A stretch of 64,000 nt of DNA from Cyanidioschyzon merolae (lineage: Eukaryota): the NCBI GenBank assembly GCA_000091205.1, contig AP006497.2, one strand, 5' to 3'. Shown one piece after another: positions 2,962 to 63,640 of the stretch. Position 1 is the first letter of the stretch. Every line of letters begins with the position of its first letter. Below the pieces are notes generated by a model that saw only the letters and a program-made list of their open reading frames with translations, was not told where the DNA came from and did not search any database. A program made the position numbers and the translations under genes.

Positions 2962-3159
2962 CAGGCGAACACTCTCCCAGCAAGCAAAGACCAGGTGCAC
3001 ACTATTGCGCACTGCACCGCGCAGCGAGCTTTCAACTGGCGTCCGCTTCTTGGGCGATTCGCCTCCGGCACGCGCGGCAGGCGGGTGCAGCTGCGAGGGC
3101 GCGGCCAACGGATCAGCGACTCGTTGATAGACTTTCACCTGAATTGCGTTCCATACGCA

Positions 3160-3720
3160 GGTGCGTGCCATCAACTGCTCTTTCGCCGCTGATGAGAGAC
3201 GCGTTCCGCGTGCGTGCCTTAGCAGAAATAAAAAATCTAGGGGAAGGTATGGGCATGGAAGTCGGAGATCAAAGGCGGTCGCCATGGCCGGCTTCTTGAG
3301 GGAAAGGACGAAAGAAATCCTGGTCTCGCCGACCATGGAGCGAAGAAGCGCAAGTGACGAAGAAGAAGAGAGGCACAGGGGCGGCAGGCGAGAAGAGGGG
3401 TTCGCCCGATGAGACTGCGACGAGACTGTACTGGGAGAGGGGGCACGAGATCGAGGAACTCTCGCAATATCGAGTTCATGCAGAGGAAATATAGAGATGG
3501 AGTTCGTGACCTGGGACCTCTATGCCGCCATCAATATCAGGGAATGTGCGGTTCTGGAGACGAGGCCCGCAGAGCCGACGCGATCCAGCATTGTGGGGCA
3601 GCCCCTGAGGCTTGAAGTGCACAAGGCGAAGCTGCAGCCGATGGCAGGGGCTGGTCAGGAACTGCTGGGAGGCGTCTGGGACTGGATATATATTTACCTA
3701 CCATGGTTGTGGAACATTTT
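3160..3720 (+). mobile_element. Truncated, internally deleted copy of the TnpB/Fanzor-like repeat family. It retains the 5' leader, the RuvC-III 'AAINI' segment and the 3' tail.
   Basis: Nucleotides 3185-3270 align with 51330-51440 and 63100-63180, including the shared TATGGGCATGGAAGTCGGAGATC leader. ORF 3497..3757 reads [36 protein letters not shown], which matches the NAAINIRRCAVLETRP... tails at 53361, 63441 and 38391. The terminal GGGAGGCGTCTG lies at 3667-3679. This copy has no transposase part. Confidence 0.55.
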
Positions 3721-4500
3721 TTTGTTTCGCTTATCTTACACAGTGCGAATTCCGTGATTAGAATTGGGATTCCTGGGCTGCGCAATAGCGGCCGAGGTTC
3801 TGGGGAGTGCCCACAGTTGCGCTCCGCGTATGGGTATGTTCCGCAAAACGGCTGATGCCATTCTTGCCGTTGAAATTTAGGGTTTGGTTAATTCCAACGG
3901 CGTCTTATTTCTGAGTGCCGAACGCGACGATTGCGCTCCCTGTGGCGCTGGGTACGCCATTTTCGCATCGGAGCTGTGCTCTACGATGCTTTGCGAGCAA
4001 ATGGACCTTGGCGGGACCCATATTCATAAACTTCGAATACTTTATATTCTGCACGCGAGTTCCTGATGGTTTTATCTGTTGGCGCGCGATTTGAGTTACG
4101 CGTTCCCAGGCTACTCGCTTGGCTCTAATTTCCGAAAAGACCTGGAATAGCTTTCGTTCATGAGAGACCCAAGCTTCTAGATTAGATCCTCTTTTCCTTT
4201 GACGAGAGCGTCGCTTGCAGTGTTTGAATCTTAGGGGACATATTCTGGTGCACGATGCTGTAGCTTCTGAACTCCCCGCCCCGAGCGCGGGCAATCGCCA
4301 TGACAGCAGATCACAGAACTTCGGAACCTAACAAGTTTTAATCTCTTTCTACTCATTCTTAACCAACGCGTCAGAGGTTTGAAGGCCTGCAGCAGCGAGA
4401 ATTTCTGGTGACGGGGCGCCCCGTTGTCTGAACACAAATGTCCCGCTACGTCCAAGATTTCACGCTCAATGGCTTTGTATGTGTTTCGTCGTGCATGGTA

Positions 4501-6922: not shown

Positions 6923-7419
6923 CAAGTCCTCTGGAATACACTTATCCAGATCGCATACAATCGGAATCAGCTGATCACTGGCGGACTGTTTTGGAAACGA
7001 TTGTTTCTATTTCGCTCCAAATGGACGCGCTTGAAGAATCCGACCAAATCGGTTGCATCAATGTAATCACCAAATGCTTGTGGAACGGAGAAGCAACTGA
7101 AAGGGAGCTGAGATTTCTGACTGGTAACCAGCGATATTGGTGCGACAGGCGGAATCCAGGTTATTTCACCCAACCACAAAAACATAAACAGATTCTTGCT
7201 CTGTGTGAGCGACCTTCACCCGATCCCACTGTGCGGCTTTTGCCGAGCTTCAACGAGATTCCTGCATTCTAGATGGTGACTGTTGGACGTGAGCAACGGA
7301 ATAGAGACTTCAAACTCCAGCGACAGTGGTCACGAGCGTGGTGCTCCGGAAGCGAAAGGTCCATGTGATGCTGGAATTTTTCATGGCCTTTGATCCAAAA
7401 CACATGTCAGTAAACGGAA

Positions 7420-8900
7420 AAGTTTCGCTATCAAGGAGTGCGTGCATATGCCGACGCGCAGAAGCCTCCCAGCCTTTTTGCCCGACACTCTGCAAATGGC
7501 TTCAGTTTCACCACAGACACTTCGAGCCTGAGACGCTGTCCCACAAAGTTTGCTGTCGTCTGCTCCTCGAGTCTCGTCTTCAGCATCGCATACCGTCCGA
7601 TGTTGAAGGCGAGGATGAGGTCTCGGTTCATGAACTCCTTGCGTTTATTGCCTCTTGTGGAGCTCAACTTTGTAGGGATTCCTAGAGACGACGCCCTTGG
7701 TGCCACTGCAGTTTTGTTATCGTCCCGTTGGGCAAACACTTTTTTCTCGCCTATCTCCCTTCATCATCTTCTGCTCCTTCGTCACTTGCTCTTCTCCGTT
7801 CGATGGTCGGCGAGAAGAGGAATTTTTCGTTCTTTTTGCCCTACTCGGGGATTATGGCTTCTCAGGATCCTCTACTTACGTTTCCGTCACTTTCCCTAGG
7901 ATTTTTCATTTCGTCAAATGAACGCAGTTGTCTATGCCCTTGGGTTGGTACATTCCCCGAGCGAGAAGGACTTGAGGAGGATGGACGACTTGTGTCCAGG
8001 CGGCACCGTTTGGTAAGAGCGTCACCGATTGGTCTTTGAGCGATCATTATTTGTCACGATAGAAAGCACTGATTTGATGGGGTTGAACCTCGAAGCGGAC
8101 AGAGGGATCAAAAGCTGCTCTAGCCCGATATAATCGACATAAGCTCGTACGCAAGATGGAATGCGAAGTGTCACGTGGTTCAATAGAGAAACGTCTGCAG
8201 ACGTGAGGAAAAGTCTTCAGTGATTCGGCAAAGTGGGTTCTGTTGTATGAGTCCTCTGAACGAGCGAAACTGAGGCCGCCATTTGGATCCACTTCATCTA
8301 GAGAAGAATACGATATCGTTGTTCTCTGCGCATCCGATTGTACATATACCGGGCTGCCTACTCCGCGAATACGCATATATGCTCCGACAGTTTCATCCGG
8401 AGAAATTCTCTTCGACTGAAGAAACAAACCGACGTCCTCATACCTCATTCCGATCGCAAAGTTCCAGAAACGCTGAAGTCGCGATTCGCTGGAAGGTGGC
8501 CGTGCTTGAACCAGAACTGTTATCTTCTTGGCTGTATTCCAGTGTTCTCAGGACAAGAAAAACACGCTGATGAGACAAAATGACGTCCGTGGCGGATACT
8601 ATCGTCGCTTCTGCTTTTCCTAAAGTGATCAACGGGTTGTTCTGTAGCATAGACCGCAACTGCACTTTGAGAGCATGGCGTTTTCGCGCAGAACGAATGC
8701 ATGCTTTTTTCAGTGCTCCTCACCCATCTGAGTACTGCAATATGACTGATCTGACGGAGAAATGCAGCCTTAGTTGCAATATTCAGGAAAAAATATCCTA
8801 CGGGCAATTCGTCTTCGATCTATAGGGTTATATCGCATCGTAATCTCGATCTCCTGCGATACACCACAGCGGGGTCGAACAAAACTGAGTTGAAAGACAA
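7420..8900 (-). mobile_element. Decayed composite copy on the minus strand: a mariner/Tc1-like transposase pseudogene (HTH plus DDE-type fragments) followed by an internally deleted TnpB/Fanzor-like 3' module.
   Basis: ORF 8438..8665(-) reads PLITLGKAEATIVSATDVILSHQRVFLVLRTLEYSQED, which aligns with the HTH region at 37442 (PLDHIFLKAKAMIVARMGVSVSQQLVRLALKTLGYTREKD). ORF 8047..8448(-) reads DETVGAYMRIRGVGSP...SLKTFP, which aligns with the DDE core at 62600-62830. ORF 7431..7739(-) reads LILAFNIGRYAMLKTRLEEQTTANFVGQRLRLEV..KLKPFAECRAKRLGG, a degenerate NAAINI tail. The reverse complement of 7460-7476 gives the terminal GGCTGGGAGGCTTCTGC. Confidence 0.55.
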
Positions 8901-10417
8901 TAATAAAACAGTGATCGTATCAGATCAACATGGAATGCAGAACTCATTGCTCTGTTCCTGCCTTACCATTCTCTTCCGAACATTTGTTTGTATGTTAACC
9001 CTCGACATTCCAAGTGTATCGATCAAGGCTTCCGCATTCGCGAACAGTTTCAGGATCCTAAGTCGCCTCCTCGGAGTGGCTCCAACGCTTTCGCGCTGAT
9101 ACTCGTTACCTCAACTGATTCAAAATGATTCGAGGCGCATTCTAAAACTGGTTCTTCATATAAGCCACACTATTATCCATCTCATAAGAACAAACATGTA
9201 GTCTTCGCTTTTCTGTATGAGAAAGACGCTCAAATCAGGGATTCCTAAAATTTTCGATCGCTCCACTTCAAGGCAACTGTCGGGCTTTGCAATGCGCTTC
9301 GCAAAATTGACGAGGAAAATAATTCGACATCATTCTTTGACGACTTTTTCATAAGCTCATGCCAAAGGCTCACAGAAATATGCACATCAAGTAACCGATT
9401 CCGTCCAACGGCAAATTATCCGCTCTTTGTTACCACCCACGAGAAGGAACTCGACACTGGTACGGCACCTCTCGTGGGATATGCTCTCAGAGGCTACCGT
9501 CTGTTGAGTTTACTTGGAAATGGTTCTTGGACTCTGAAGTGAAGAATCGCAGCGATTTCTTCCAGTGGAGTGGTCGTCATCTTTTTGCTCGAACGGAGCC
9601 TAGACGGATCGAAACATCTCGACTTTTTCTGTAACTTGGATATTCCTTTTGGTACTTGTTTAGACAAGGACAATTTCTAGCTCCACAAATCCTCTTTCGA
9701 GTGGACGGCGTTCACATCAGTATACATGGAACAACGCACTCGCCGAAGGGAGTCGCCCAGAAGAAGCCCGTGATCGTAGTGCACGGCGGCGAAGGCGAAA
9801 ACGGTATGGGACACCAAGTGCAGTCTTCTGTGCCAATTACAAGCATGCACTGTGTAATGAAAGAAGCCCTAGAGCGCCACAAGGCGCCTACTGTCCCCGA
9901 GGCGGAGTGGTGGACAGTTTTGAAAACCCGATAACATTCAAGAGTTATCCCTAACAGGGTCGCATGAACACTGTACGCGAAATGGACGAAAATGGCAAGC
10001 GAAGCGTGAATCGCTTGCTCTAGCTGTTTATGAAATGCGTCGACAACATCTTGGAGCGGTGAGATCGCGATATGAACGTGGTCATCAACATCCATCTACT
10101 CATGGCGAGGGCGCTGGAAGGAAAGGAGATACTGGCGCGTTTCAGACTGGATGTATGAGATAGAAAAAGAAACCAGTGGCTCTAAAGGCCTAAAATGACT
10201 TTTGTTGATTAGGATGGGACGTGGAACAGACTTAAGAGTGTGCGCCTACGTTAGAGAATATGTTTCGTTTCATTCTGGAAAGCGTCTAGTTCGAAATCCA
10301 CTCAAATCGTCAATTCGGTATCCAATTTGACCGCCTCAGTAACGCTGGCTACGCCGCGGCGCTGTGTAGAGATTCAACTTTGTTTCGATACTGTCGCTTG
10401 AAACGCTCACGAGAAAG

Positions 10418-34200: not shown

Positions 34201-37199
34201 TACACTATATCGTAAATCCGTATCTGTTTCAAGCTCTTTTTCTGTATCTGTTTCTGTGTGCACTCGTGCCCGTGATGTGTGAATCTCACTCCAAGCTCAT
34301 CGACAAGAATCAAACAGAATCGATCCCCGCACTAGTTGTAAGCTTTCGTGTGCGGAGCCGGCATGCAACATTTGCGCGCTAAAGCACGTCCAGCGCCGCA
34401 AGATACCACCACCGAACGACGTGACATATATATATCTATCCATTTCTAACTTGCAGTGCATTTTGGTCGATGCACGCTTCTTGCATGCGCACAACTGACT
34501 CTGCTTGCGAACCAAGCACGCTCCCTTGTACTCGTGCAAAAAATCGTCCGTTTGAGTCAGTTGGACTCTACGGAGTATAAGTTTAACGCAGACCGATCTG
34601 CTCGATTCGATGCCCAGAGCGTCGAGATGGGTTCCGACCCGGCCACTCGACACGCTGGTATATCTCCTGACGTCCTGCGTACCCAGCTCTCGCTGGTACG
34701 GAGGTCTGGGAAAACTGAATGCCTGCACCAGCTTTCCTTTCAGGTCTTTGGGTTCGGCCCCTTGGTTTGGAGATGCGGCGCTGGTTTTGACGCCTTCCAA
34801 CCTGGGATCCACGCCAAACACAAACGCTTGCTTTTCGCTTACCTTGAAGGGTTGAAAATGAGTGTCGTTACTCGACTCAGGCTTTGTCCTCAAGACTTTG
34901 ACAAAGTACACGTAGACTGATATTCCGTCGGCCTCCACCGTCGCTGTGGATTGCTTTTTATATTCTCCCTGTAAAGGAGAAAGCTCCGATTCGCTCCATC
35001 AATGCTGCTCGACGTTGTTCGAATGCTTCATATTTGCTCTTAGAAACCGGCCGTGGCTCACCGACAACGCCATACACTGGACGAGTGTCTACGATGAGCA
35101 TACGGGCTCTGATGAAAGATATCCCAATAACGTCGCATAGACACTTCAGGAAGCCATGGAGCTGGGATTCACAGAGCAGTTGTGCCATGCTCTTGCGGGC
35201 TCTGTTCAGGAACACTTCGAAACGCAAAATCCGAGGAATGTAGGCATCCCGTTTCACCGATCGTTTGGATATCACGTCCGCCAGTTCTGGGGAAAGGCTA
35301 TCACAATGAGTTGGAACTGTACGAAGCTACCCATATTCTCGTTGAGACATCTCTTCTGAGCTCGCTACCATTTCGAACGTTCCAGGTATCAGCTCTGGAC
35401 ATGATTTAATCGACGCACCCGCGATCGTTTTCTTCAGTATTCACCTTTCTGAACCAGTAACGTGAGGCTACGATACCCACAGTGTGATCCTAATGAAGCG
35501 CTCTAGACTAAACCGCATCTCACTCCGGTTTTTGAGGTCTGCTTGATACTTTTTCAATCTGGTTCTATAGACTTTTATTCCGATCGATGCGGCACCGCGA
35601 AGACTCGGGCATGCTGGAAAGCGTTCCAGCGAATCTCGGATCCTAGTAACAGGCAGTGATGCATCTTTAGCCCCGGGAGTCAGCAGTGCTCCAACATGAA
35701 GGCTAGATCGAAAATTTCGAGGGGAATATAGACAGCTCGTCGTCCTACGTCCCGTACTCGTGCGAAAATCTGTTTGACGTGGTGCGTCCAGGCAAGGGAA
35801 ACTGGGCTAGGCTTCCTCAAGAAAGCTGCTACGCAATCCCTACTGGCGCCATCTGTAATATGTTTTGGAATATTCTCTCCAGTGATGAGATTGAATACGG
35901 AGCCATTGAAAGCGCTCTCAGACTGATTTTGCGGCGCCGACATTATTCCCTTCCAGTGAATCCTCATCGTCGTGGCTGGAGGGTCTTTCTCTTCTTTGCC
36001 GGGTGGTTTCCTCTTCTTCTCCTTCACACGGTGGAATGCCATGGATGTGATTGCGTTACTCCATATCGATTTGGTTCCCTTGAGATTCAGACACATGGGG
36101 AGAACGACCGGTACAAAGCTCGCCTTCCCTACGAATCTATCCACAGCTATCAAATTTCCTTTTGTCACTATCTCTGTTGCGAGCATGTCCACGATCTGTA
36201 GTGCTTTTTAGCGTCCCATCACGCATAAGAGCGGAGGAGTGGCACGCTGGTTCGTGGATGATACAGGGTAAAAACGACTTGAGAGAGAACCGTGGCATGG
36301 ACGCGAACGACTCCTGAATTCATCCACAAGCGCACATGCGACGTTAAACAACATCGATGACGCCCTCAACTGCAATAAACTGGAGAGAATAGGTTGAAAC
36401 GAAATATAGCTCAACGCCTGTCTCAGCTGCATGTCGTCCTTTGTGTTTTGTAAAGGAAAGCGGCCATTTCGAAAAGTGAGAAAGACTAGTGAGGCGAAAA
36501 GCCCCGAAGTGCGTCGGCGACGAGTCCAATATGTGATGATGGTATCCTTTTTAGATTTTGTACACTATCACATGATTCGAATGCCGGTTGGACTTCTATT
36601 CCAGGAGTGCTGGCTTGTTTTGTGGTGATGGACATCGGGTTGACTTCTTCCACCGTCGAGTGACAAGCAGAATATTTCTCCCGCATGAATTCTCATCGAG
36701 TGAGTCAAACACCATTCTTTGCTGTCATCAGCGTTCACATTTGAGTACGAGATCCATTCTCTGTGCTTCAACACTTGACGGTCTCCTGTGGAAGCACAAT
36801 TTTCTCTTTTATCTATCCGTATCTGTTCATTAGCGGTCGATTCTGCGGTAGAGATCCTCCATATCCTGTGCCTTCTTAGATAATAATTCCAAGAAAACGC
36901 AGTGAATAGAATGAACCAACAAGGTTAACAACATGAAGGTAGAGTTTGATTAGTTCTGTTTTGGTGTAGAGCGTTTTGGATAAGGACTACGAGATAGGTG
37001 GCTCATCTACCAGGTGCCTGAAGAATTACTGAGTTGTTCATTTCGAACCTTTCGCGCCAAAGCTGTCAATGAAAGAATAAACTGCTGCCGCGACCGTTCT
37101 CCGTATTAGATGATATATTCCTTATGTTGAGAGCATTCGATAAAAACAAAAACAAAAAGTTCATGCACGTACGGGTGTTCAAGGGACACGCTAATTTCA

Positions 37200-38550
37200 T
37201 AGTCCTTCAACTCAGGATTTTTCACGCCCGCAGCAGTGCATAGCAGGAGATCGAAATCACGATACAATGTATTCTATAGACCATTGATCACTTGCCTGTA
37301 AGATATATACTCCTTACAGAACAGTGCCTGGAGGACTCCATTCCTCATTCATCTCAGGCATATCACAGTACTCAGATGAACGAGAAACACTCAAAGAAAC
37401 AAGAACAAGGGCTTCGCGTCGAAAACCGGTATTCTTAACAGGTGCTTGCGGTCAATGGTAGAAAACGACCCCTTGATCATATATTCCTGAAGGCAAAAGC
37501 GATGATAGTTGCCAGGATGGGCGTCTCTGTTTCTCAACAGCTTGTTCGTTTGGCCCTGAAAACACTTGGATACACTCGCGAAAAAGATCCCTATTTCACG
37601 CACAGCCATCGTCCACCAAAGTCGCGACGACAGCGTTCCCGGAACTTCGTTATCCATATGAAGCAGCGGGACGTCAATTCATCCTCGTCGCCGAGACTTG
37701 CTTCAGACGATACGGGTGGAGCGTATATGGGTATTCGAGGAGCAGGGCGGCCGTTGATAATACGGCCGAACTCGTGGAGACCGAGGACGTTATCAACTGT
37801 TCTGGCTGCAGTGGATTTACATGGCGGCCCCAGTTTCGCTCGTTGAGAAGCCTCATGCAATAGCACCAGCTTCGCCTTATCATTGACGACTTTTCCATGA
37901 CGTGTAGCGACGTCATTCTACTGGACGACATAGCATTTGGCCATTCCCATCGCGTTCGATTTTTTGGAGATCCTGTCCGGGTAGAGCTGCTCTTCAGTAG
38001 TCCGTTCTCTATGTGGTTCAAACGCATCGAAGAATGGTTTATTCTACTGAAACGTAATGGTCGCTCAACTCGTCGATTCGCTGAAGCGCTCAGTTCGGAG
38101 ACATCGGGACACATTTTTGTCTTTTTCCCGCAAGTGCTTTTCCCTCCGGGAAGGTCCTTACCTAAGGGCATCAAGAATTATGTTCATTTCAAAATGCTAT
38201 GGGATGAGTTGGGGTGTACACTTCAGAAGTTCGATATCGAGAAAAGCCAGCGGAACGCTTCGGCTATTGAAAAGTATGGAGAGCTGACCGAGCCGCAAAT
38301 GGCACCGAGGACACGAGTTCGAGGACTCTTTGCATTGGCAAGTTTAAGCGGCGTCATGAAAAGAATTAAATTCGTACGTCGAGACCAGAACGCCGCCATC
38401 AATATCGGGAGATGTCCTGTGCTGAACACGAGACCCGAGGAGCTGAGGCGAGACAACCTTGTGGGGTAGCCTCTCGGGCTCGAGTTGTACAAGGAAAAGC
38501 TGAAACTGATAGAAAGAGGCTCGTCAAAAAGGGATGGGAGGCATCTGCAC
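37200..38550 (+). mobile_element. Composite element copy: a mariner/Tc1-like transposase pseudogene (HTH plus DDD core) read through into an internally deleted TnpB/Fanzor-like C-terminal module.
   Basis: The left-end nucleotides 37215-37440 align with 62130-62365. ORF 37442..37846 has an HTH (MIVARMGVSVSQQLVRLALKTLGY) and the first acidic motif (LASDDTGGAYMGIRGAGRP). ORF 37897..38469 begins ILLDDIAFGHSHRVRFFGDPVRVELLFSSPFSMWFKRIEEWFILLKRN, the second D and D/E motifs of Tc1/mariner. It continues in frame to EKYGELTEPQ...VRRDQNAAINIGRCPVLNTRPEELRRDNLVG, with the NAAINI at 38391-38406. The terminal GGGAGGCATCTG lies at 38535-38546. Confidence 0.6.
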
Positions 38551-39245
38551 AGGAGTTTTCATTTACTCTTCTTGGGCGTTGGACATAGTTTTGATTCACT
38601 GGCGATGATATGTCTAGTATAACTCTTTCGCTACACGCATGTTCCGAGAATTTCCGCGAATCCGGTTTTGTCCGTGATCAATTTTATGGGATCAAAATAC
38701 ATTGGTCAGATAAGAGAGCTTTTAGTTGGCTGCTAATGCTGAAGGTTCATTTGATCTCTTGAATGCAGCAGATTAGATGCTTATTTCATAAAACCTCTGC
38801 TGTAGATCTTAATTTCGGTGGGTTCTTGCGATGGAAATAGTGGAGTATGTTGTATCGAAACGGTATCCGCGGAGTGCCCAGTTGAAAGCTCGACGCTTGA
38901 TGGTAAGTTTTCGACGCTTTGAATTCGGCAGCTAGGGTCGTGAAAGAGTTTGTGCTGGAGAGAAAGCGCGCATATTCAGCGGAATGCAACGAGGCACAAA
39001 ACGCCCAGAGCCGACCATTGCAGAGATCGGAGGCAACTGAGCGTGAACGTGTTTATTCCACAAGCGCCTCTGTACTACAGCCTCAGGTGAGCGCTCGCTG
39101 AATTGCTCACTGGCGGCAGCATCTCATCGTATTTAGATGCCGTTGGATCGCAAGCGGGTCGCAGCGCCAGAATTGACTCCCAGAACGACGCCCAACTTGA
39201 GAACCTCATTTTGATTCAAGTTCAACACGGAAACTTTATGTACGG

Positions 39246-42325: not shown

Positions 42326-42490
42326 AATCCACATACACTCTTGTCTTGGGACGTATAGTCTCTGATCTCTGCCCTATCAAGTGGCACCAGAGGTTGTAGC
42401 GCATGCAAATCCACATACACTCTTGTCTCGGGATGTATAGTCTCTGGTCTCTGACCTATCAAGTGGCACCAGAGGTCGTAGCGCATGCAA
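42326..42490. repeat. Tandem direct repeat, two units of about 82-83 nt.
   Basis: Unit 1 (42326-42408) and unit 2 (42409-42490) are about 90% identical (AATCCACATACACTCTTGTCTTGGGACGTATAGTCTCTGATCTCTGCCCTATCAAGTGGCACCAGAGGTTGTAGCGCATGCAA). The repeat lies about 370 nt 3' of the EF-G gene. Confidence 0.7.
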
Positions 42491-46829: not shown

Positions 46830-47075
46830 GAAATCCAGGATGTACGGTACTGCAGGGTGGACAAGCTTTCAAATTCGGGGCACGTTGCTGTTTTTCAAAG
46901 GATCAAACGCTGGATATCCAGTTGTCTAGGTCCAAAACCGGTCCAAATTCGGTGTACATCGCTGTTGTTCAAAGGATCAAAAGCTGAATATCCGGTTGTT
47001 TAGGTCCGAAACCATCCAAATTCGGTGTACATCGCTATTTTTCAAACGATCAAAAGCCGTGTATACAGTGATGCA
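46830..47075. repeat. Minisatellite, about 3.3 tandem units of about 74 nt.
   Basis: Unit 1 is TTCAAAGGATCAAACGCTGGATATCCAGTTGTCTAGGTCCAAAACCGGTCCAAATTCGGTGTACATCGCTGTTG at 46894-46967. Unit 2 at 46968-47041 is about 88% identical. Partial degenerate units lie at 46830-46893 and 47042-47075. The overlapping ORFs 46693..46929 and 46697..46987 are artefacts. Confidence 0.75.
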
Positions 47076-47573
47076 GGTAAAGCATGCCTCGAATCTGGTT
47101 CGCTTTGCTGTTCTGCAAACAGTCATTGATTGTGAGCAAGTGCAACAGCGTCGCCTCGGATAGACGCTTACGAAAGTGTCGTCCTTGATCTGAAACTGGG
47201 TTGGCATACGTATCGTAGACTTGCCCGGATGCGCCAGCGGGGCGCTCCCATCGACGGCATCAAGCTGCATTTAGTGAGCGTACGCTTTCGTCTGCATGAT
47301 TCAGGACTGGTGGATACGTTTGGGTATTCCCTTCCAAACGTCCTCAGCGACTTTTTCCATGAATACGTCCTAGCACATGTGCTCAAGAGGGCAGCCCCGA
47401 AGGGTCTGGCTAGAACTGCTGCACCTCATGCGTGCATGTGCCGCCGCCGAGCTCCCTTTCGCATACCCGGGAGAGAAGCCACAAACACACACACCGTTAT
47501 CGTCGTGCTTTTCGTTGCTCTCGTCAGCATCTTTGTAGCTTTATACAGTGCTGTCACCATGCAGACGAGCAAT

Positions 47574-49163: not shown

Positions 49164-50040
49164 AGAGGCAGTTTATTGAGAGTTATAGCGCACAAGGCGT
49201 GTGAAAACTGGCGGAGCGCACCGCAGGCGTCAGCGATGCGAAACAGCCGGTAAAGGACGCAGATGAATTCGTGGCCGCAGGGACGCGCAGCGCCATGGCG
49301 GCACGCTCGGACGCTGTTGCTACCAAAAGCAGGGGAAGCTCCATGCCGCAGGCCCTGGAGGGTTCCCCCAATGCAGCCCAGATGATGCACACCGTGCAGC
49401 TAGATGCACTCTTCTCCCATGCAGCATAGTCTTATCTTCCAGAGGTACATCGCACCGAAGCTGGTGTGGCGTCCTCGGTTGCACCAGCTGCGGGGCGACG
49501 TCTGCGAGAAACTCTTCAGTGCGTACGATTGTGGAATACTGAACGCACCTGGTTTCCATTTGCCAAAATGTCAAGACTGTCCAGGTATAATTCATGTGAA
49601 GAACAGGATATCCGTTTGGTTCATTCGAGGCTTGTCTCCGGAACGGCTTCGAAATGAGACCAATCATCGTGATCGGGGCAGATCTGTGGTCTCCATGTGA
49701 ATGGCGATACCTGCGGGCGGGGCTGTTGCAGCAGCTTGCAAAGAATGAGACGGTTCCGTTTTTGTAAATGCGTGTACAAGACGGGTCTCTCGCAGAGCTC
49801 GAGAACAATATCGCGTACGCTATCGTAGCGTGGTTGATCATGCAGGCATCGTGCGGATGCACTTCGCCCATCGAAAGACTTCGCTGCGCATATCCGTGCC
49901 GGGCAGGGGAGCAGAATGCTATCGATACTGGCTCGGTGTCCTCATTTGCTGCTTCGGCTTACGGAGGCAGTAGCGAATTGTGCACGGGATCGATGTTGTC
50001 GAAAAGAGCGCCTCTGCGATGAGGCGACCTGAGACATTGA

Positions 50041-50200
50041 ATTGATATCGGGCAAATCCATTCCCAGCGGGCAACTGGAAGTTCGACGCTCGGCAGCGGG
50101 ATCTCGTGGAAGGCAGTACCCGTAGCAGCGATTTGATATCGGGTAAATCCATCCCCAGCGGGCAACTGGAAGTTCGACGCTCGGCAGCGGGATCCCGTGT
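50041..50200. repeat. Tandem direct repeat, two units of about 68 nt separated by a 23-nt spacer.
   Basis: Unit 1 at 50041-50108 and unit 2 at 50132-50200 both read TTGATATCGGG[C/T]AAATCCAT[T/C]CCCAGCGGGCAACTGGAAGTTCGACGCTCGGCAGCGGGATC[T/C]CGTG, about 94% identical. Confidence 0.7.
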
Positions 50201-51299
50201 ACGAGAAGGCCAAAGCACATGAGCACCCCAACGGGACAAGTCGCGAGCCACTCGCACGATTTGCCGCTGCAGCAAGGTCAGCGAATCGAAACAGAAGACC
50301 ATGGATGGGCGGAAGCTGCCCAACACAGCCAGGAATGTCTGCGTTTTTCTCCAGAAAACTCTAAAAGTTGCAAATCTCAGAACGGTTTGCGTATTTGTTG
50401 AACGCTTGGACGCCAACACGGATACGGGACGATTTTCGAGAGTTTCGCCTCAACGCATGTACTGGAGCCTCTGGACGGACAGCATATCCGCGCGAAGAGA
50501 TTCCATATGTTTCCAGAGACAAAAAGTTTACGTTGATCGGGGATCCCATATTGCGGAATGGGTATTGGCTGTCGGGAAAGTGTCCATCATCCTGCGCTAT
50601 ACTCCCAGATTCCATCACCTGTTCTCGGGTGTACTGGTCGTTTTCTACGTTCGATTTTGCACCGAGCCTGCGGTGAGAACCCGCCTCAGCGCTTATACCG
50701 CTAGAGCAGAAGCATCACGGAGACCGGACTGCTTTGTCATACCAGTGAGGGCGGCGACTCGAGGCAGGGTGCACCCCGCACGGAATCCGAGGACAGTATC
50801 ATTCTGGAGCCGACAATCTGCGCAGGCAGACGTACTGCCTGCGGCACCGCAAAGAGATGTGCTGGGAGACCACGTCGACTAGGGCGATGGCTGGGTGCAT
50901 CCGAACCACTCCTGTTCCCAGAATAAACCTGCATTGCGGACGAGCTGCTCAGGTCTCTTCACAGCACTAGGCACTGGGAAGAGCACGACGCACTTACATA
51001 GCAGACTCGGTCGGCACGCCGGACATTCCGCCTCGAAGGTAAACTTTCCACAATACGGAAACCTTTTCCCCCTTTTAACGCCTACTGTGAAGGTCGAACG
51101 AAAGTATCATCGAATTGCCAGTTAGTGTTTAGCTTCTGTTGTTTTTTCTATAGTGCGGTCGATACGCGCACCTCGATTCCTGGCAGGCATGACACACGAG
51201 ATGCATCTCGCAGTTGATGAGAAACGCGATCCTTTTTTCGCGTGTTGCTCTAGCGTACAAGATGTATTTGCCTGAGCGTAATACCAAAGTAAGTTTCCC

Positions 51300-53600
51300 A
51301 ACTGAATTGTGTTCCATTCCCAAATTAGTGTATTCAAGTGATTTTTCTCGGTTTATAGGAGACGCGTTCGAAGCGCGTTCATCGTCAGAAATGGAAAATA
51401 CCAGAGCAAGTTATGGACATGGAAGTCGAGGATCCTGGAGGGCCGGTGTCGCCGGCTGCCGGAAAAATTAGGGAAAACAGTGGCGAGCAAAGAGGAACAG
51501 AAGAAGAAGAAGCCAAGCCAGGAGGACCGACATCAATGACTGCTAGAAAGACAACAATGCGACGAGTTGGTTGTGACAGCCTGTCTTCTTGGACATATCA
51601 CAGATCCGTGCAAGCCAAAGTTGCAAGCGGCCATCAGAAATCGTGTCATTTCGTACTCCCTGAGTATTCGAAATGCTTCTTCAGGACTAATGAATTTGGT
51701 GAGCAAGATATATCGCAGCGTGACAATTACGAAAACAGTCGAGATTCCGGAGGAATTTATCTACAAGAGCTTCATTTGTCACCTGATGGTTGGCACAAGG
51801 GAATCATCGAGGAGAAATGGGGGAGTGCACACCCTCCACGAAACCGACGGGGCAACAAAGTACCACAAGAGCCTGAAGAATCATATGACCATGAACCTCG
51901 AACGTTTCATGATACGCGCAGTGTTTGCGCCATACCCGGGAATCTCTCGCAAAGGAATATGGGCGACTATCAATGGCATCACGAACGATGGTCATCATGA
52001 AGATGAGATAGAATTCATCGACAAGAAGACGTCACACAGGAGCAAGAATGAAGCTTCTGTAATCCGTGCGCGTATTCAAGAGCGTCGTGGGTTACTGGGC
52101 GGGCGGATCCAACAGAAAAGATATCAGAGTTGAAAAAAAATATGCAAAGATACTATCGCCTCATCCTACGGTATTTCATGTTCCTGGATCGAGAACTCGA
52201 ACGCAAGGCAGAGGTGACGTTAAGTGGGGGAAAATGAAGAGTGGGAGAGACGGAAGGCTCTCCTAATAGGAGAGCGCTTCAAAGTCGTTCCGTTGTGGAA
52301 CATGAAGTCACATTTTGTGACTACCGACTCCAGAGTCCTTTACGGTATCATGGAGGTGATCAGTTCGGAGTTCGATGTAAGGAAGACAGAGTTCTCTGGT
52401 GAAACCCGGGAACGAACTGGAAGAATATCTTCGATTTCAAACGTCTGAAAGTAAGCAAACAAAAGGTATTCACTGGTATGATCGAAACAGATGGGGTAAC
52501 CATGTGTGTACACTATCGGTGCTTGAAGGTGGATCGCCCAGTTCCGCTCGTGACGAAGCATGAAGATGAGAAGGAGGCGGATCCTTCGACGCAGAAAGTG
52601 CAGGATAACGACTTTGTTGTTGGCGCGGACCCCGGGGAATATGAATATCATAACCAACGCAGCACCCAAGCGTGCGGAAGGTGGCATTGACGGTACCTTA
52701 CGTCAGAAAGACATGCGACTTTTCAGGTTTTCGAGAGCGAAATGCTATCTAGAAACGGGTAGAATGAATGCGAGGAAAAAAATCGAGAAATGGAATGCAG
52801 GAATGAGAGAGCACCTGGAAGCTGTGAGCGATGTGACGAGCCACGGAGCGGACGTTCAGGCTTTTCTGAAATTCATGGAAGTTCGCATATGGCGCACCGG
52901 GATGCGCTGTGGGAGGAGTATGCCAAGCCCCGGTGGGCTCGTTTGCGAATGAATCTATACGGTGGTAAGCAGCGGGCATTTGCGAATTTTTTCAATGAGT
53001 TGAGCTCCCTGAAGGAGGACGAGAGTCAGAGGCTGGTTGTAGCATACGGAGCAGGTCGCTGGATGATCCCGAACGAGACTACGCCAGCTCCAAGGACAAG
53101 AACGTACAAAGAGTGCGCATAGCGTTCCGGCACGATACCTGTAGATGAGTTCCGAACATCGTATACACACCATGAACTGGGGTGTATACTCCAGAGGGTG
53201 TAGATGGAAAAGTGTCAGCGGAGTCCTGAGGATATAGCAAAGTACGGAGCGCTGACGGAGGAGCAAATGGAAAGGGGGCGAAAGTTCGAGGACTTCTCGC
53301 ATTGGTACGTACAATCAATGGCAAGAAACGTATGGAGTTTGTGAACCGAGGCTTGAACGCCGCCATCAATATCAGGAGATGTGCGGTGCTGGAGACGAGA
53401 CCTCCAAAGCTGACGAGAGAGAATTTTGTGGGGGAACCTCTTATGGTCATATTATACGGCAAGAAGCTGGAACCACTCGTAGGTTGCCGGTCCAAAAAAA
53501 CCGGGAGGCGTCTGCACGTCAGTTGGACGCTTTTCGTCTGGGGCGCCGGTCGCCGCCACTTTTGTACACCGCCGGCGGCTGCGTTTTTCTTTAGAACGGC
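51300..53600 (+). mobile_element. Longest copy of the TnpB/Fanzor-like element. It holds a coding scaffold of about 2.2 kb for an OMEGA-type RuvC nuclease, fragmented across eight overlapping frames, and has no adjacent mariner transposase.
   Basis: ORFs 51413..52000, 51567..52133, 52066..52266, 52224..52448, 52478..52690, 52560..52952, 52790..53122 and 53302..53661 are all on the plus strand in shifting frames. A candidate RuvC-I motif is [10 protein letters not shown] at about 52610. RuvC-III reads FVNRGLNAAINIRRCAVLETRPPKLTREN at 53361-53375. The 5' leader TATGGACATGGAAGTCGAGGATCCTGGAGG at 51411 and the terminal GGGAGGCGTCTG at 53504 are shared with the other copies. Confidence 0.6.
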
Positions 53601-53661
53601 CTTCGGTGTTAGCGTTGGCACTAGCAGTTTATCATGTTCAGCTACGCTGGAAACGCTTTGA
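51413..53661 (+). pseudogene. TnpB/Fanzor-like RNA-guided endonuclease gene. The reading frame is disrupted by seven or more frameshifts. It is either pseudogenised or interrupted by short introns.
   Basis: See the mobile_element entry at 51300-53600. The C-terminal D-x-NAAINI plus a conserved tail match the IS605 OrfB/TnpB/Fanzor RuvC-III motif. No single ORF longer than 195 aa survives. Confidence 0.5.
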
Positions 53662-55037
53662 CCCGTCTTACATTTAGCAATGGAATAGAACGTGAACATC
53701 GGAGCGAGTTGACGGGTAGCAGTCGCTCCAGACGGTCGCACCGCCAGGTAACGCTGCCGCTGCGGACGTACGCAGCACGTACGCGCGCTTATAGCTCCGC
53801 CGATGCTACCAAATTTTTGGATGCGAGGAAGTTACCGTTTTTGAGAGCAACGAAAGTGATCAATTGCTGCTCGAGCTTGTCGATGCGGGACTCGGGCAGC
53901 AGTGGTGCAACCGGCACCGCCCCTGTTGGCACCAACAGAAACACAGCAGCGCAGCGGGTCGGACGCGCTGCAGTTGACTGGCAGTCTCTCGGTTTCGGGT
54001 TCACGCCGACCAACTGCTACGTCAAAGCGGTCTGGAGAGAGCAAACTGGGACCTGGTCTCCTGTAGAGGTCGTCCCATACGGACCCAACGGTGAAGCTAC
54101 GTTCCCTCTGCACGTCGCGTCGACGGCCCTGCACTATGGACAGTCCATATTCGAGGGCCTCAAAGCGTTTGCATGTGCCGACGGGCACGTTCGATTGTTT
54201 CGTCCACAGGAGAATGCCCGCCGTCTCGAGCGCTCGGCCTTGCGTCTGAATATGCCAGTGGTACCAGCTGCGCTTTTCCTCGAGGCGGTGACCCGATGTG
54301 TATACGAAAATCTGGAATTCGTGCCCCCGTATGTCGAACAAGGCGGTGGCGGATCACTCTATGTACGCCCTGTTCTGTTCGGATCTGGAGGTCGCATTGG
54401 CCTCGGCCCAGCTGATGAGTATACCTTTATGGTGCTGGTGGTGCCGGTCGGCAACTACTACAAGGGCGGCTTATCGCCAGTCACAGCATACATATCCACG
54501 AATTATGATCGAGCTGCGCCCCGCGGTGTGGGTCACGTCAAAGTGGCAGGCAACTACGCCGCCGACTTGAAACCGAGCATGGAAGCGAAACAACGAGGCT
54601 ACCCGATCAATCTCTATTTGGATGCGCGTGAGCAAAAGTTTATCGAGGAATTCGGAACCAGCAATTTTTCTGCGGTACGCTATCTAGATGAAAACGGAAA
54701 CCGATATGTATACGTTACACCAGACAGTCCCTCGGTTCTGGAAGGTGTCACCAACAAAACGCTCATGGAGCTTTCACTAGATGCAGGGATGAAGGTGGAG
54801 CGACGACGCATTCCTGTCGAGGAGTTGGCAACGTTCGATGAGGTGTTCGCCTCGGGAACCGCTGTTGTGATCACAGCTGTGGACCAGATTGTATATGGTG
54901 ATCAGGTCATCGGCATCGGTAAGCATCCCGGCTCTGGTCAGGTAGGACCTGTGGCGCGCCGACTCTACGACACCGTGCGCGGGCTTCAGACGGGGCGATT
55001 GCCAGACCGGCACGGATGGACGTATTTGGTCGCCTGA
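53634..55037 (+). CDS. BCAT: Branched-chain amino acid aminotransferase (BCAT, PLP fold type IV), probably mitochondrial. The conserved domain starts at about aa 107. Alternative start Mets (for example 53883) would avoid overlap with the upstream repeat's right end.
   Basis: BCAT signatures include GFGFTPTNCYVKAVW, LHYGQSIFEGLKAF..DGHVRLFRPQENARRL, YVRPVLFGSG, the PLP-lysine region, and GTSNFSAV..EVFASGTAVVITAV. Confidence 0.85.
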   Translation: MFSYAGNALTRLTFSNGIEREHRSELTGSSRSRRSHRQVTLPLRTYAARTRAYSSADATKFLDARKLPFLRATKVINCCSSLSMRDSGSSGATGTAPVGTNRNTAAQRVGRAAVDWQSLGFGFTPTNCYVKAVWREQTGTWSPVEVVPYGPNGEATFPLHVASTALHYGQSIFEGLKAFACADGHVRLFRPQENARRLERSALRLNMPVVPAALFLEAVTRCVYENLEFVPPYVEQGGGGSLYVRPVLFGSGGRIGLGPADEYTFMVLVVPVGNYYKGGLSPVTAYISTNYDRAAPRGVGHVKVAGNYAADLKPSMEAKQRGYPINLYLDAREQKFIEEFGTSNFSAVRYLDENGNRYVYVTPDSPSVLEGVTNKTLMELSLDAGMKVERRRIPVEELATFDEVFASGTAVVITAVDQIVYGDQVIGIGKHPGSGQVGPVARRLYDTVRGLQTGRLPDRHGWTYLVA

Positions 55038-56427: not shown

Positions 56428-57403
56428 AGCGCGGGTCGTGTTCCGGACGCCCAGGAATGCCGTCCCGAGTTCACTTTGACAGCAGCGACGCTCGACAAAG
56501 CTGCTTTTCCTGGTTTACGGAGCAGCCTACAGCGGAATCGTACCCAGCGTAGCGACAGCGCAGCGTCAAGCGACACTGTTTCGCGGGTAGCGTTATCGCC
56601 GCGCGCTCTGCAGCGGGTGTACGCACAGGCCTCGACTCGACGACCGCAGACAGCGGCACACTACGAGGCCGCTATCTCTGCGTCCGAGGACAGCAGTGGT
56701 CATCCAGCGCCATGACTCCGTGTTTGTCCTGGGACTGGGGTGGACTCGAAAGTCGCAGAATCCCTTGATCCGTCGAGCGTCTATGCCCCCGACCACAAGG
56801 TCGGTCTGGAGCTGCTGGAGCGCACATATGTCTGCGCAGGCAGGCGCTAACACCTGTTTCCTGGACTGTGTAGTCTCTTGGTACTCGGGTGCCTCGCTGA
56901 ATCAATGTAGAGCCATTTAGTTTACACCATGAAAGAAAAGTGACGCTGAGTGCTCCAATGTCTGAAAAGGAAACGTATAAACTTGTGTGGAAATGTCGTT
57001 GGCGTGCATCCAGCGAGGCTTACGCGCTCAATGGGAAACAGAACTGTTGGCGTGCTTGCCATCGAAGGATGCCGTACGCCTGCATGCAAACTGACCTCTG
57101 TGGAGATGCTCGCCAGTTAGCACTCGGGGGATGCATCGTACACACCTAGCTTGTCGTCCGTTCGAGCTGCGTCTGTGGTCGACGAAATCACGACATGCTA
57201 GAGAGCGCCAGCACACACGGGTCACGACTTGAACACCGCAGCGCTGGGGGCGCGTACGCCCGTCGTGCGCAAGCGCCGTCAGTATCGACTGCTGCAGGTT
57301 GCGGTTAGCTGCTCGCCACAACAGTACGGGAGTTAGATAGCGTTTGACTCTTGAACGGTGTCGGTGGTAATGATGGAGTGCCCTGCGCGGGATCTGTGTT
57401 GCG

Positions 57404-58531
57404 TTGACCATGCTTAGTGACTGCAGCGCTTTTGTGGTCGTTCCAAGGTTCTGCTACCGGTTGCACGTGGGCGCGTCGCCGCCCGGAGCGTTGCAGTCGT
57501 CACGACGGCGAGTGGCTAGGTTACGGGAGCGCTCTGCTGGCACGCTTCCCTGGGCACGTGCAACATTCTGCAAGGCTGGGTGTCGTATTGGCAGCAGCAG
57601 TTGCAGCGTGTTGCTTCGCTGGAAGTCGTGCTTTCTTGCCGGTGAGGAGCGTTCGCACCTCCGCCAGCTCGGAAGCTTGGTACAACAACCGGGCGCTCTC
57701 CGTCAGCACGTAAGTATGAGCTTGTTCTCAACGCCTGCTCAAGTCAGTTCTTATGAAATAATTGAGTCATATCCACACGACCCGAGTGCGTTCACGCAAG
57801 GCCTCGTCTACGCTGAGGCGCCGATTCATTCCCCAGACGAGGCCGAGTGGACGATGTTGCAAACCTCGACTGAGGTCTTTTACGAGTCCACCGGTCTTGT
57901 GGGGGAATCTTCACTGCGCTGCGTTCACAAGTTATCAGGGAAAGTCCTAAAATGTGTGCAGGTCCCGGCACCGCATTTCGCTGAGGGCCTCGCGCTCGTT
58001 CCACGACCCACTCGGATGCTGTTCCAGCTCACGTGGCTGACCCGCACAGCCTTCCTCTACGACGGTGTATCGCTGAAACAGGTGCGGGAAATACCGTACG
58101 ATCTCGAAGGCTGGGGAGCAACCTATGATTCCAATCGCCATTGCATCTACACGAGTAATGGAACCGACCGAATCCATATCGTGGACGCAGACACCTTCGA
58201 GATCCTGGACCAAGTTCGGGTCCGTTCGAGTCCGTACAAGTTCTCGCGCTCTTGCCCGACATTGTGGTACCTGAACGATCTCGAAATGATTCCCGATACT
58301 GACGAGCTCTGGTGCAACGTTTTCTTCAGTGACTATGTTGCGGTTGTGGATCCAGCGTCATGGGAACTGAAACGATGGATTGACCTGCGCGGTTTACTCT
58401 TACCCGAGCATTGCCTGCCTTGCCATGAAGTGGATGTCTTGAATGGACTGGCCTGGGACAGAAATCGGCAACTGATGTACGTGACCGGGAAACGCTGGCC
58501 GCGAATGTATGCCATTCGAGAACGCCCATAG
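57404..58531 (+). CDS. Glutaminyl-peptide cyclotransferase of the plant/bacterial beta-propeller type. The conserved domain begins near aa 110. The internal Met at 57716 is a possible true start.
   Basis: Plant-type QC motifs are YEIIESYPHDPSAFTQGLVY, then LNGLAWDRNRQLMYVTGKRWPRMYAI at the C-terminus. Predicted beta-propeller repeats are dispersed through the sequence. Confidence 0.7.
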   Translation: MTMLSDCSAFVVVPRFCYRLHVGASPPGALQSSRRRVARLRERSAGTLPWARATFCKAGCRIGSSSCSVLLRWKSCFLAGEERSHLRQLGSLVQQPGALRQHVSMSLFSTPAQVSSYEIIESYPHDPSAFTQGLVYAEAPIHSPDEAEWTMLQTSTEVFYESTGLVGESSLRCVHKLSGKVLKCVQVPAPHFAEGLALVPRPTRMLFQLTWLTRTAFLYDGVSLKQVREIPYDLEGWGATYDSNRHCIYTSNGTDRIHIVDADTFEILDQVRVRSSPYKFSRSCPTLWYLNDLEMIPDTDELWCNVFFSDYVAVVDPASWELKRWIDLRGLLLPEHCLPCHEVDVLNGLAWDRNRQLMYVTGKRWPRMYAIRERP

Positions 58532-62129: not shown

Positions 62130-63640
62130 CCTCTGTTGCGTCTGGTAGAATGCTTTTCGGCAGTGCCGAACATGAGATCGAAATCCCCATGAAATATACC
62201 GTATAGATCGCAGACGAATTGCCTGTAGGATGTACGTTCCTTACTGAACAGTGCACAGAGTACTGCATTCCGTATTCAGGTCCGTCGTACCACAGAACTC
62301 AGATGGTTGAGGAACACGGAAAAAAAGAAGGATACGCGTTCCGCGTCAGCAACCGATATTCTAAAAGACTGCTTGCGGTCAATGGTGGTGGACGACCCAT
62401 TGATCACCGTACGAAAAGCAGAAAGCGACGATAGTTGCTATCGCGGGCGTATCTGAATCTCGCCAGCTTGTCGCTGTGCTCCTGAAAACACTGAGATGCG
62501 GTCGTAAAAAAGAATCCTAGTTCATGCACGATCAACTTCTGCTGAAATCGCAACTACGACACAGTCCCTGCAAGGTTACGATCGATATGAAGCACAGGGA
62601 CGTCGGTTCCTTTTTGCAGTCGACGAGACCTGCATCGAACGAAACCGTCGGCGCGTATATGGGTATTCGCAGCTAGGGAGCCCGTTGCGTATACGGATGA
62701 AGTCGAAGAGAACGAGGATATCATCTGTTCGATCTGCAGTGGATATATTTGGCGGCCTCAGACGCTTTCACGGAGAAGGCTCACGCAACGGCACCAACCA
62801 TTATGTCGAATCCTTGAGGACTTTTCCCTTGACGCCCAGCAACGCCCCTCTACTGGACAACGTGGCATTTCACCATTCTCTTTGGCTTCGAGCTTTTGCC
62901 GATTCCCGCGGGGCAGATCAGCTTTTCATTCCTCCGTACGCTCCGTGGCTCAACCGCATCGACGGAGTGTTTTCTATCGTGAAACGTAATGATCACTTTA
63001 CAGAGCGCATTGATGAATCCTTCAGGACACGGTGACACACCAGGGCACAGTACCTCGTTCGTCCACGTGTGCTTCTGCCTCCGGGACGCCCCACTCCCTG
63101 GGTCATATTGAAGTGCTTTCATCAAAGGAAATAGAACATCTATGGGACAGGTATGGACATGGAATTCGGGAATCCTGGAGGCTCGGTCTAGCCGGGTGTC
63201 GGAAGAGAAACGGAAACATCCTCTTCTCGCCAACCAGCAAGCGAAGAAGAGCAAGTCGTGAAGAAGAAGAAGAAGACGAGGAAAAGCGGAGATAGGCGAG
63301 GAAAGTTGGTTGTCCGATGTGACGATGACGGGACTGTAGTGGCGCAGAAGGCGCAAGTTCTAGGAATCCTTGCATTGGTACGTTCCACCAACGGTATTGC
63401 AAGCATGGCGTTCGTAAACAAAGCCTTTAACGCTGCTATCAATATCAGACGATGTGCGGTGCTGAAGACGAGACCCGCGGAGCTTACGCGATCTAAATTT
63501 GTATGGCAGCCGCTAAGGCTCGAAGTGTGCAGGGATAAACCGAAACCGATAGCAGGTGGCAGGTCAAAATACGCTGGGAGGCGTCTACACGTCGGTGTAG
63601 ATACAGACACGCTATCGTCGTGAAGCTTTTCAGGTTTCAT
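62130..63640 (+). mobile_element. Composite element copy: a mariner/Tc1-like transposase pseudogene followed by an internally deleted TnpB/Fanzor-like module. Its architecture matches the 37.2-38.55 kb copy.
   Basis: The left-end nucleotides align with 37215-37440. The HTH fragment is LLAVNGGGRPIDH at 62365. The DDD core in ORF 62685..63035 and upstream reads FAVDETCIERNRRRVYGYS ... PLLDNVAFHHS ... LFIPPYAPWLNRIDGVFSIVKRN, with D-to-D spacing of about 35 aa. The 5' leader TATGGACATGGAATTCGGGAATCCTGGAGG at 63152 is followed by a GAAGAAGAAGAAG tract. ORF 63258..63623 reads MAFVNKAFNAAINIRRCAVLKTRPAELTRSKFVWQPLRLEV...GRRLHV. The terminal GGGAGGCGTCTA lies at 63576-63587. Confidence 0.6.
62380..63035 (+). 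pseudogene. Mariner/Tc1-superfamily DDE(D) transposase pseudogene, frameshifted and short.
   Basis: The catalytic triad context is VDETC (first D), LLDNVAFHHS (second D), and PPYAPWLNRIDGVFSIVKR (third acidic residue, D). The 35-aa spacing is closest to mariner DD34D. An HTH-like segment lies upstream. The reading frame breaks between the HTH and catalytic parts. Confidence 0.55.

Follow-up and report, generated by a model that had tools for sequence, protein, structure and literature searches.

A stretch of 64,000 nucleotides (nt) from the red alga Cyanidioschyzon merolae (GenBank assembly GCA_000091205.1, contig AP006497.2), called the window throughout, carries degraded copies of the Fanzor1 element CMe-1A. 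In the sole long one among five of these copies, c4, an initial annotation made from the letters alone had marked positions 53361-53560, from the RuvC-III motif onwards, as a candidate guide RNA scaffold or element right end. We find that this interval is the 3' part of a dead CMe-1A copy, that the ~150 nt originally singled out are essentially the coding C-terminus of its Fanzor1 gene, and that the non-coding block which follows the family stop codon and reaches the true right end (53,542-53,608; plus strand, as are the coordinates of element parts below unless noted) is, in active copies, probably the scaffold of an ωRNA, the guide RNA of OMEGA systems (short for obligate mobile element-guided activity). 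The earlier observation was largely real and mis-bounded, and its interpretation is partly supported: a structured 3'-terminal module does abut unique flanking sequence, but it lies mostly downstream of the place proposed, with only H2 and the unsupported helix H1 inside the marked interval.

The host is C. merolae 10D, to whose proteins BAM81500-BAM81511 four intact neighbouring open reading frames (ORFs) are exact matches. CMe-1A was described from this species by Bao and Jurka (2013, Mob DNA 4:12; PMC3627910) as a Fanzor1 element with ~150 copies that are ~80% identical to a consensus of ~3 kb, with no terminal inverted repeats (TIRs), with target site duplications (TSDs) undetermined and transposon class unknown, and with a 5' 635 bp common to a separate repeat, TE-N2_CMe. 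By description the window copies are CMe-1A: they agree with it in host and size, carry Fanzor1, lack TIRs and have the shared 5' module. This module occurs both with and without the Fanzor part, which fits the sharing between CMe-1A and TE-N2_CMe. The 2013 account is older than the discovery of ωRNAs and contains neither a 3' structure nor a guide; C. merolae goes unmentioned in the searched supplements of the Fanzor characterization papers.

Judged by its profile matches, the nuclease is a genuine Fanzor1, which bears out the earlier assignment to the TnpB/IscB/Fanzor type. Neither the degraded c4 protein nor a narrow profile of 120 close metagenomic relatives had a match in Pfam or among PDB sequences. 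An exhaustive profile search brought in 1,262 relatives, and only the broad profile then built from 77 diverse full-length members (A8) tied the family to Fanzor1, matching PpFz1 of Parasitella parasitica (9CF0, E = 3.8e-20), SpuFz1 (8GKH, E = 3.6e-11) and GtFz1 (9CER, E = 4.3e-5) in the PDB. The family consensus holds the RuvC triad in order, as GADPGNTN, VDEFRTS and NRDFNAAINI (NRDxNAAxNI). The RuvC-III codons of c4 (53344..53373) read NRGLNAAINI, with Gly for the third catalytic Asp, and because of this replacement and a frameshifted ORF the copy is inactive. In the zinc-ribbon region, distant relatives match PF07282 at E = 0.002-0.09, all below threshold, and CMe-1A has HHELGC...C in place of a clear C4 motif. 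An AlphaFold2 model from a shallow alignment was unusable (predicted local distance difference test score 42). Directly upstream of RuvC-I the protein carries tandem acidic repeats of ~22 amino acids (KHEEKKEAxPATQEVxDNDLVVxA), which number from 1 to 5 or more according to the element (P0002, P0006, P0007, P0010; ~2500-2900 in locus L019). In a brine metagenome (locus L090), a DDE_3 Tc1/mariner-type transposase gene (435-1343) stands directly upstream of the distant relative P0122 (1501-3600), so that transposons of different types carry one and the same Fanzor1 clade.

Translation of the five copies, c1 to c5 in order along the window, confirmed that all share an ordered segment downstream of NAAINI. 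In c4 this begins with the canonical Fanzor1 C-terminal segment (53374..53418, RRCAVLETRPPKLTR), which matches PpFz1 and SpuFz1 at their final residues and follows a broad-family consensus, RCxxxxxRPxxLxR, in which R, P and R are each at least 90% conserved; it goes on with a lineage-specific C-terminal extension (53419..53538, ENFVGEPL...GRRLHVSWTLFV). The tail as a whole consists of ~25 codons of canonical Fanzor1 C-terminus and ~40 codons of lineage extension (ENFVGQPLKVELYEKKLEAVVGGRSKKTGRRLHVSWRRFV and then the stop). Better-preserved relatives translate it, their proteins ending ...GRRLHVSWRRFV before the stop. The family stop corresponds to 53539-53541, which is TGG in c4, so that the c4 ORF continues as far as 53661. 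In 32 independent insertions whose upstream sequence is long, diversity at third codon positions is 1.2-2.2 times the mean of positions 1 and 2 in the tail and ~1.7 times in the RuvC core; third-position diversity itself is slightly lower in the tail (0.20-0.25 vs 0.29). The copies are alike from RuvC-III to 53,538 through protein-coding selection on master copies from which all of them descend. Premature stops recur at the same codons, after RPPE (a Trp codon) and after NF(V/I)G (a Gln codon), in P0013, P0025, P0034, P0094, P0095 and P0106, in c3 of the window (38450s) and in L019 (3657), which suggests recurrent transition mutations at particular sites.

The initial annotation had predicted conserved RNA structure in the aligned tails, which did not emerge in the coding part. 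RNAalifold, run on the tail and end of 44 independent copies, found hardly any structure, with a consensus energy of only -4.5 kcal/mol and no convincing helix among the codons. Two candidate helices were rejected here: H0 (CTGGAG/CTCCAG, within the codons for LE..RPPE) has no compensatory changes, and H1, which joins GAGGCGTCT of a conserved 12-mer motif to AGACGTTTT, has them at 0/9 pairs in a structure-aware alignment and shows no G·U excess (6 G·U vs 10 A·C). The motif can pair with a U-rich box (53524-53536) over 9-15 bp, many of them G·U. Taken together, H0, H1 and the small hairpin H2 are paired in 86.0% of cells, compared with 85.9% in shuffles.

The 12-mer itself, GGGAGGCGTCTG (53503..53514, codons G-R-R-L), had been reported as a shared motif in all five copies. 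The five occurrences are real at up to one mismatch, against 0.37 expected from shuffles; the motif is exact at two places only (3667 and 53503), with one mismatch at 38536, 63576 and 7459-7470 (minus strand), and some of the coordinates first given were off by 1. No 12-mer of the five-copy alignment is better conserved than this block, where 3 of 60 cells are mismatched and the mean is 12.4; the catalytic NAAINI block equals it, an unexplained match across five divergent copies.

Conservation past in-frame stops, and in copies whose upstream coding region is wrecked, had been offered as further signs of an RNA. Homology does run on past a stop codon in c3, directly after ...NLVG, but this is uninformative, and neither sign speaks for an RNA, because uniform decay from common ancestors explains both: c2 and c5 have a flat identity of 0.56-0.80 over their full 1.45 kb, with no elevation in the tail. 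Uniform identity of this kind had been named beforehand as counting against the RNA proposal. All window copies are pseudogenes with frameshifts and stops in six-frame translation, and the repeats that carry the five tails are only 66-73% identical to one another in self-comparison. C. merolae-like strains, ~99% identical, that carry the orthologous c4 insertion have 7 variable sites in 300 nt of tail and end, and vary by ~1.5% on average in the rest of the element; these sparse data give no hint that the tail is under constraint today.

The right end was located from 79 aligned loci, which represent 46 independent insertions of the copy-4 subfamily. Column conservation is 80-99% through the motif, the stop codon and ~60-65 more nt, and then 20-40%; diversity (π) rises from 0.2-0.4 within the block after the stop to ~0.67 in the flank. 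TT(T/G)G is all that stays conserved past the last hairpin, and unique flank starts directly after it, about one-third of the copies going on with GGTG, which pairs back to CACC of the linker that precedes the hairpin. Element ends read ...GGCGTTTG. Mapping of the divergence point, proposed earlier as a check, thus gives a boundary for c4 at ~53,604-53,608, which is ~95-105 nt after the motif start and 26-30 nt before the ATG of a host aminotransferase gene. Unique flank had been thought to follow the motif within 20-40 nt; the terminus supposed there is the point where subfamilies diverge. The c5-type right end is built otherwise, with ~27 extra nt after the motif and then a U-rich box; it ends ~55-65 nt after the motif and has no post-stop block. 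Only one extra copy of it occurs in ~320 kb of related loci, too few for a structure test. In locus L060 a c5-type and a copy-4-type element (3760-4075, minus; 3501-3840, plus) stand tail to tail, with their right ends a few nt apart. One further left end only was found among the loci, which leaves too few true left ends for a target-adjacent motif (TAM), and no empty site was found, as all strains carry the c4 insertion.

The block between stop codon and right end is structured. It begins with a small hairpin, H2 (53542..53557, GGCG...CGCC), directly after the family stop, in which four outer pairs are well kept and double changes are few. A conserved single-stranded linker follows (53558..53567; ACTACTGTAC in the family consensus, ACTTTTGTAC in c4), and then the long terminal hairpin H3 with the terminal TT(T/C/G)G(GTG) that forms the right end (53568..53608; partly degenerate in c4). 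When copies are folded singly, most give this layout. No segment folds more stably than this block, whose mean folding z is -1.9 compared with -0.2 for the flank, and the best-preserved copies reach -3.8 (L044) and -2.9 (L065); the hairpin score is 9.3 vs 6.2 ± 1.8 for shuffled sequence. H3 exists in two sequence variants, CGTCGTTCGA-CTT-TCGAACGGCG and AACGTTTTTC-TTTT-GAAAGACGTT, each self-complementary, with the registers slightly shifted. MAFFT fails to bring the two into register, which called for a covariance model; it was built from 22 copies of the majority variant and recovers 53 right ends. In the alignment of these 53 copies H3 has compensatory changes at 9/10 pairs, and the three helices H1, H2 and H3 together have 29 double-change cells vs 9.5 ± 2.5, with 0/500 shuffles as high and all slid controls lower. 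Covariation is weak in H2 and nil in H1. At the Watson-Crick positions of the H3 consensus, G·U outnumbers A·C by 26 to 8 (p = 0.003), an indication that it is the sense strand that folds; RNA and top-strand single-stranded DNA fit this equally.

We propose that these ~65 non-coding nt form a cis-acting right-end module in which a long terminal hairpin ending TT(T/G)G, preceded by a short hairpin and a conserved linker, gives way directly to unique flank. In active copies the block would most likely be transcribed as an ωRNA scaffold and bound by Fanzor1. The 5' end of the scaffold may extend into the last ~13 codons, at the 12-mer motif, and the guide, which would direct Fanzor1 to the allele without the element, would be 15-20 nt of flank; in c4 the putative guide is 53609..53628, just short of the aminotransferase ATG at 53634.

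The position and architecture of the ~65-nt block are those of characterized Fanzor1 ωRNAs, which measure 75 nt (PpFz1), 90 nt (SpuFz1) and 150 nt (GtFz1), contain a 7-bp stem-loop 1 (SL1), at least one more stem-loop and a guide taken from the flank, and overlap the ORF by at most ~17 codons (PMC10432273, PMC11423790). Like SpuFz1 and PpFz1 (Saito 2023, PMC10432273; Xu 2024, PMC11423790), CMe-1A is a Fanzor1 with stem-loops and then variable flank. SpuFz1 elements, however, have inverted repeats, and none were found in the CMe-1A copies; the terminal hairpin of the CMe-1A candidate RNA is also longer than theirs, at up to 19 bp. If H1 were real, the CMe-1A RNA would start ~13 codons before the stop and measure ~105 nt plus guide, comparable to the GtFz1 ωRNA with its 17-codon ORF overlap, although neither covariation nor strand asymmetry supports H1. 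Bacterial TnpB ωRNAs or right-end element RNAs (reRNAs) of the IS200/IS605 group, e.g. ISDra2, likewise derive from the nuclease gene's 3' end together with the right end, subterminal hairpin included. The TnpB scaffold, on which the initial annotation was modelled, overlaps ~100+ nt of coding sequence, whereas the coding tail of CMe-1A shows no RNA-type constraint.

Several points weigh against an ωRNA. The RNA is deduced from DNA letters, and H1, which would place its 5' boundary, lacks both compensation and a G·U excess. H3 may instead act at the DNA level, its G·U excess suiting top-strand single-stranded DNA as well, and the covariation statistics are inflated by an alignment that was fitted to the proposed structure and by the shared ancestry of the copies. 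The c5-type ends do not fit the covariance model (~7 bits). Rfam 15 gave 0 matches at the gathering threshold in the window and noise only at E <= 10 in 53,200-53,700, and no likeness to published Fanzor1 scaffold sequences is visible by eye. Between strains the tail and end of c4 show no reduced variation, at a level of variation (~1%) too sparse to settle the matter, and TAM, TSD and empty site could not be defined.

We consider it very unlikely that the whole ~150 nt from RuvC-III to the motif are an ORF-overlapping, TnpB-like ωRNA scaffold in an element that ends 20-40 nt after GGGAGGCGTCTG. The equal conservation of the motif and NAAINI blocks in five divergent copies would suit such a scaffold, as would the pairing of motif and U-rich box, which is possible in c4, c5 and c2, a segment from -195 to -126 nt before the stop that folds slightly above shuffles (z = -1.6), and the slightly lower synonymous-site diversity of the tail. 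The tail nevertheless retains codon periodicity, its first third is conserved as protein in a broad Fanzor1 family and aligns to the C-termini of PpFz1 and SpuFz1, and identity is uniform along the degraded copies. The weak RNAalifold consensus and the failure of H0 and H1 to exceed shuffles or to show compensation tell against it too, as do the ~95-105 nt conserved beyond the motif start in 46 insertions and the overlap of at most 17 codons in known Fanzor1 ωRNAs. That the post-stop block is simply the 3' untranslated region of the Fanzor1 mRNA, with termination, polyadenylation or stability signals, is slightly more improbable still; it does follow the stop codon directly and has a stable hairpin and then a short T-rich tract, but conservation ends exactly at the element boundary, the boundary-adjacent layout fits ωRNA geometry, and non-coding deletion derivatives without the ORF retain their 3' ends. 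Least credible is a lack of any function, with all similarity among the window copies being residual identity of old pseudogenes. Uniform c2/c5 identity, the unreduced between-strain variation at the c4 tail and end and the broken state of every window copy agree with this, and for the window copies it is true; in the family at large, however, H3 pairing is kept through two stem sequences and many double changes, and coding periodicity bespeaks selection in master copies.

Unlikely, though a stronger competitor, is the view that the hairpins are DNA-level transposition signals only, for instance a 3' hairpin for a rolling-circle or HUH-type transposase acting in trans, as in Fanzor1 elements borne by Helitron2. 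No transposase lies within the element, the hairpin is 4-9 nt from the end, and the G·U excess is compatible with top-strand single-stranded DNA. CMe-1A copies also keep intact 3' ends with variable 5' extents and internal deletions, and so resemble the Helitron2-borne CRe-1, 2 and 3 of Chlamydomonas (PMC3627910), which combine intact 3' ends and a subterminal 3' hairpin with internal deletions and truncation at the 5' end. Unlike Helitrons, however, CMe-1A ends ...GGCGTTTG and has no 5'-TC...CTRR-3' termini, and an asymmetric inverted repeat between the left end and the right end (linker) scored 6.5 vs 6.7 ± 0.9 for shuffled sequence. With the expected termini missing and the repeat no better than chance, CMe-1A does not qualify as a Helitron or Helitron2, its likeness to them being confined to the subterminal hairpin at the 3' end and the pattern of 5' truncation; no RepHel gene was seen, though no search was aimed at one. 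DNA signals and an ωRNA are in any case not exclusive, as an OMEGA guide RNA necessarily spans the right-end signals.

An extension of the ωRNA reading, possible but rather doubtful, is that CMe-1A has a functional ωRNA of ~105 nt plus guide that runs from an ultra-conserved GGGAGGCGTCT box (also GGGAGGCG) in the last 13 codons to ...GGCGTTTG, and that c1, c2 and c5 are guide-only 'ghost' elements which, with their distinct shorter right end, parasitize the nuclease in trans. A thermo-acidophilic red alga would then be the source of an RNA-guided nuclease system. Should the post-stop block be an ωRNA, it would supply the missing guide component of the C. merolae Fanzor1 family and join, as a red-algal, heat-adapted member, the few Fanzor1 systems whose guide is defined. 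C. merolae, a model alga amenable to genetics, grows at ~42 °C. The 2013 account left the transposon class and mobility of the family unexplained and could not determine its right end, for which exact coordinates are now given. The family and the kind of system were already known, and a guide RNA at the 3' terminus of Fanzor1 elements is established biology, so that no concept is changed; new for CMe-1A are a defined right end and a candidate guide scaffold.

The window holds at least eight fragments of the family, more than the five first listed. Copy c4 (51169..53608), with frameshifts and stops, runs from the common 5' core boundary (CACCTC...) at ~51.2 kb to the right end at ~53.6 kb; tblastn with the near-intact L019 Fanzor covered it from 51417 to 53538 in several frames, and a shared 5' module lies further upstream (~50520-51138). 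Copies c2 (7400..8901, minus; 3' limit approximate) and c5 (62160..63640) are collinear, internally deleted derivatives of 1.45 kb, each with a short N-terminal part of the ORF fused directly to the last ~330 nt; their homology stops at ~63,640 in c5, ~55-65 nt after the motif. Copy c1 (3136..3735; 3' limit approximate) is a fragment of an internally deleted non-autonomous derivative. It has one internal deletion junction in common with c2 and c5, where the N-terminal ~50 codons are joined to a point ~25 codons before NAAINI, and the three therefore represent a 1.45-kb non-autonomous derivative that was propagated. Copy c3 (37199..38605; 3' limit approximate) is a different deletion derivative that joins the 5' module to the part from RuvC-II to the end.

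Beyond these, a degraded solo right-end relic of copy-4 type (CCACAACAGTAC...GCGTTTGACTCTTGAACGGTGTCGGTGG) lies at 57263..57370 (16.5 bits, E about 0.002 with filters off), with no Fanzor coding sequence detectable upstream, and stops 34 nt upstream of the ORF 57404..58531. Two old Fanzor1 coding fragments that the initial annotation did not list, at 20139-20516 and 34047-34412 (minus), have 29% and 36% amino-acid identity to L019, respectively. The 5' module is found without the Fanzor part at 31224-30424 (minus), 59739-59120 (minus), 25143-25010 (minus) and 50520-51138, and in this solo form is probably the TE-N2_CMe of Bao and Jurka.

Right ends repeatedly lie just upstream of host start codons (53608/53634 and 57370/57404 in the window, and in loci L013 and L018, where the Fanzor frame runs directly into an ORF resembling glycerol-3-phosphate dehydrogenase). 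A bias of insertion towards gene-proximal DNA on the 5' side, or retention of elements there, could lie behind this. BAM81500, a 773-aa glucose-6-phosphate isomerase (1015-3336, minus), is extended at its N-terminus when compared with cluster members of 648-665 aa, and the extension overlaps the 5' part of c1 (3136-3336) in antisense; its start codon may be mis-annotated, or sequence derived from the transposable element may have been incorporated. No tRNAs were found. Short tandem repeats of 70-91-nt units in two to three copies, at 46870-47086, 42326-42489, 261-416 and 50039-50199, are unrelated to the Fanzor tails.

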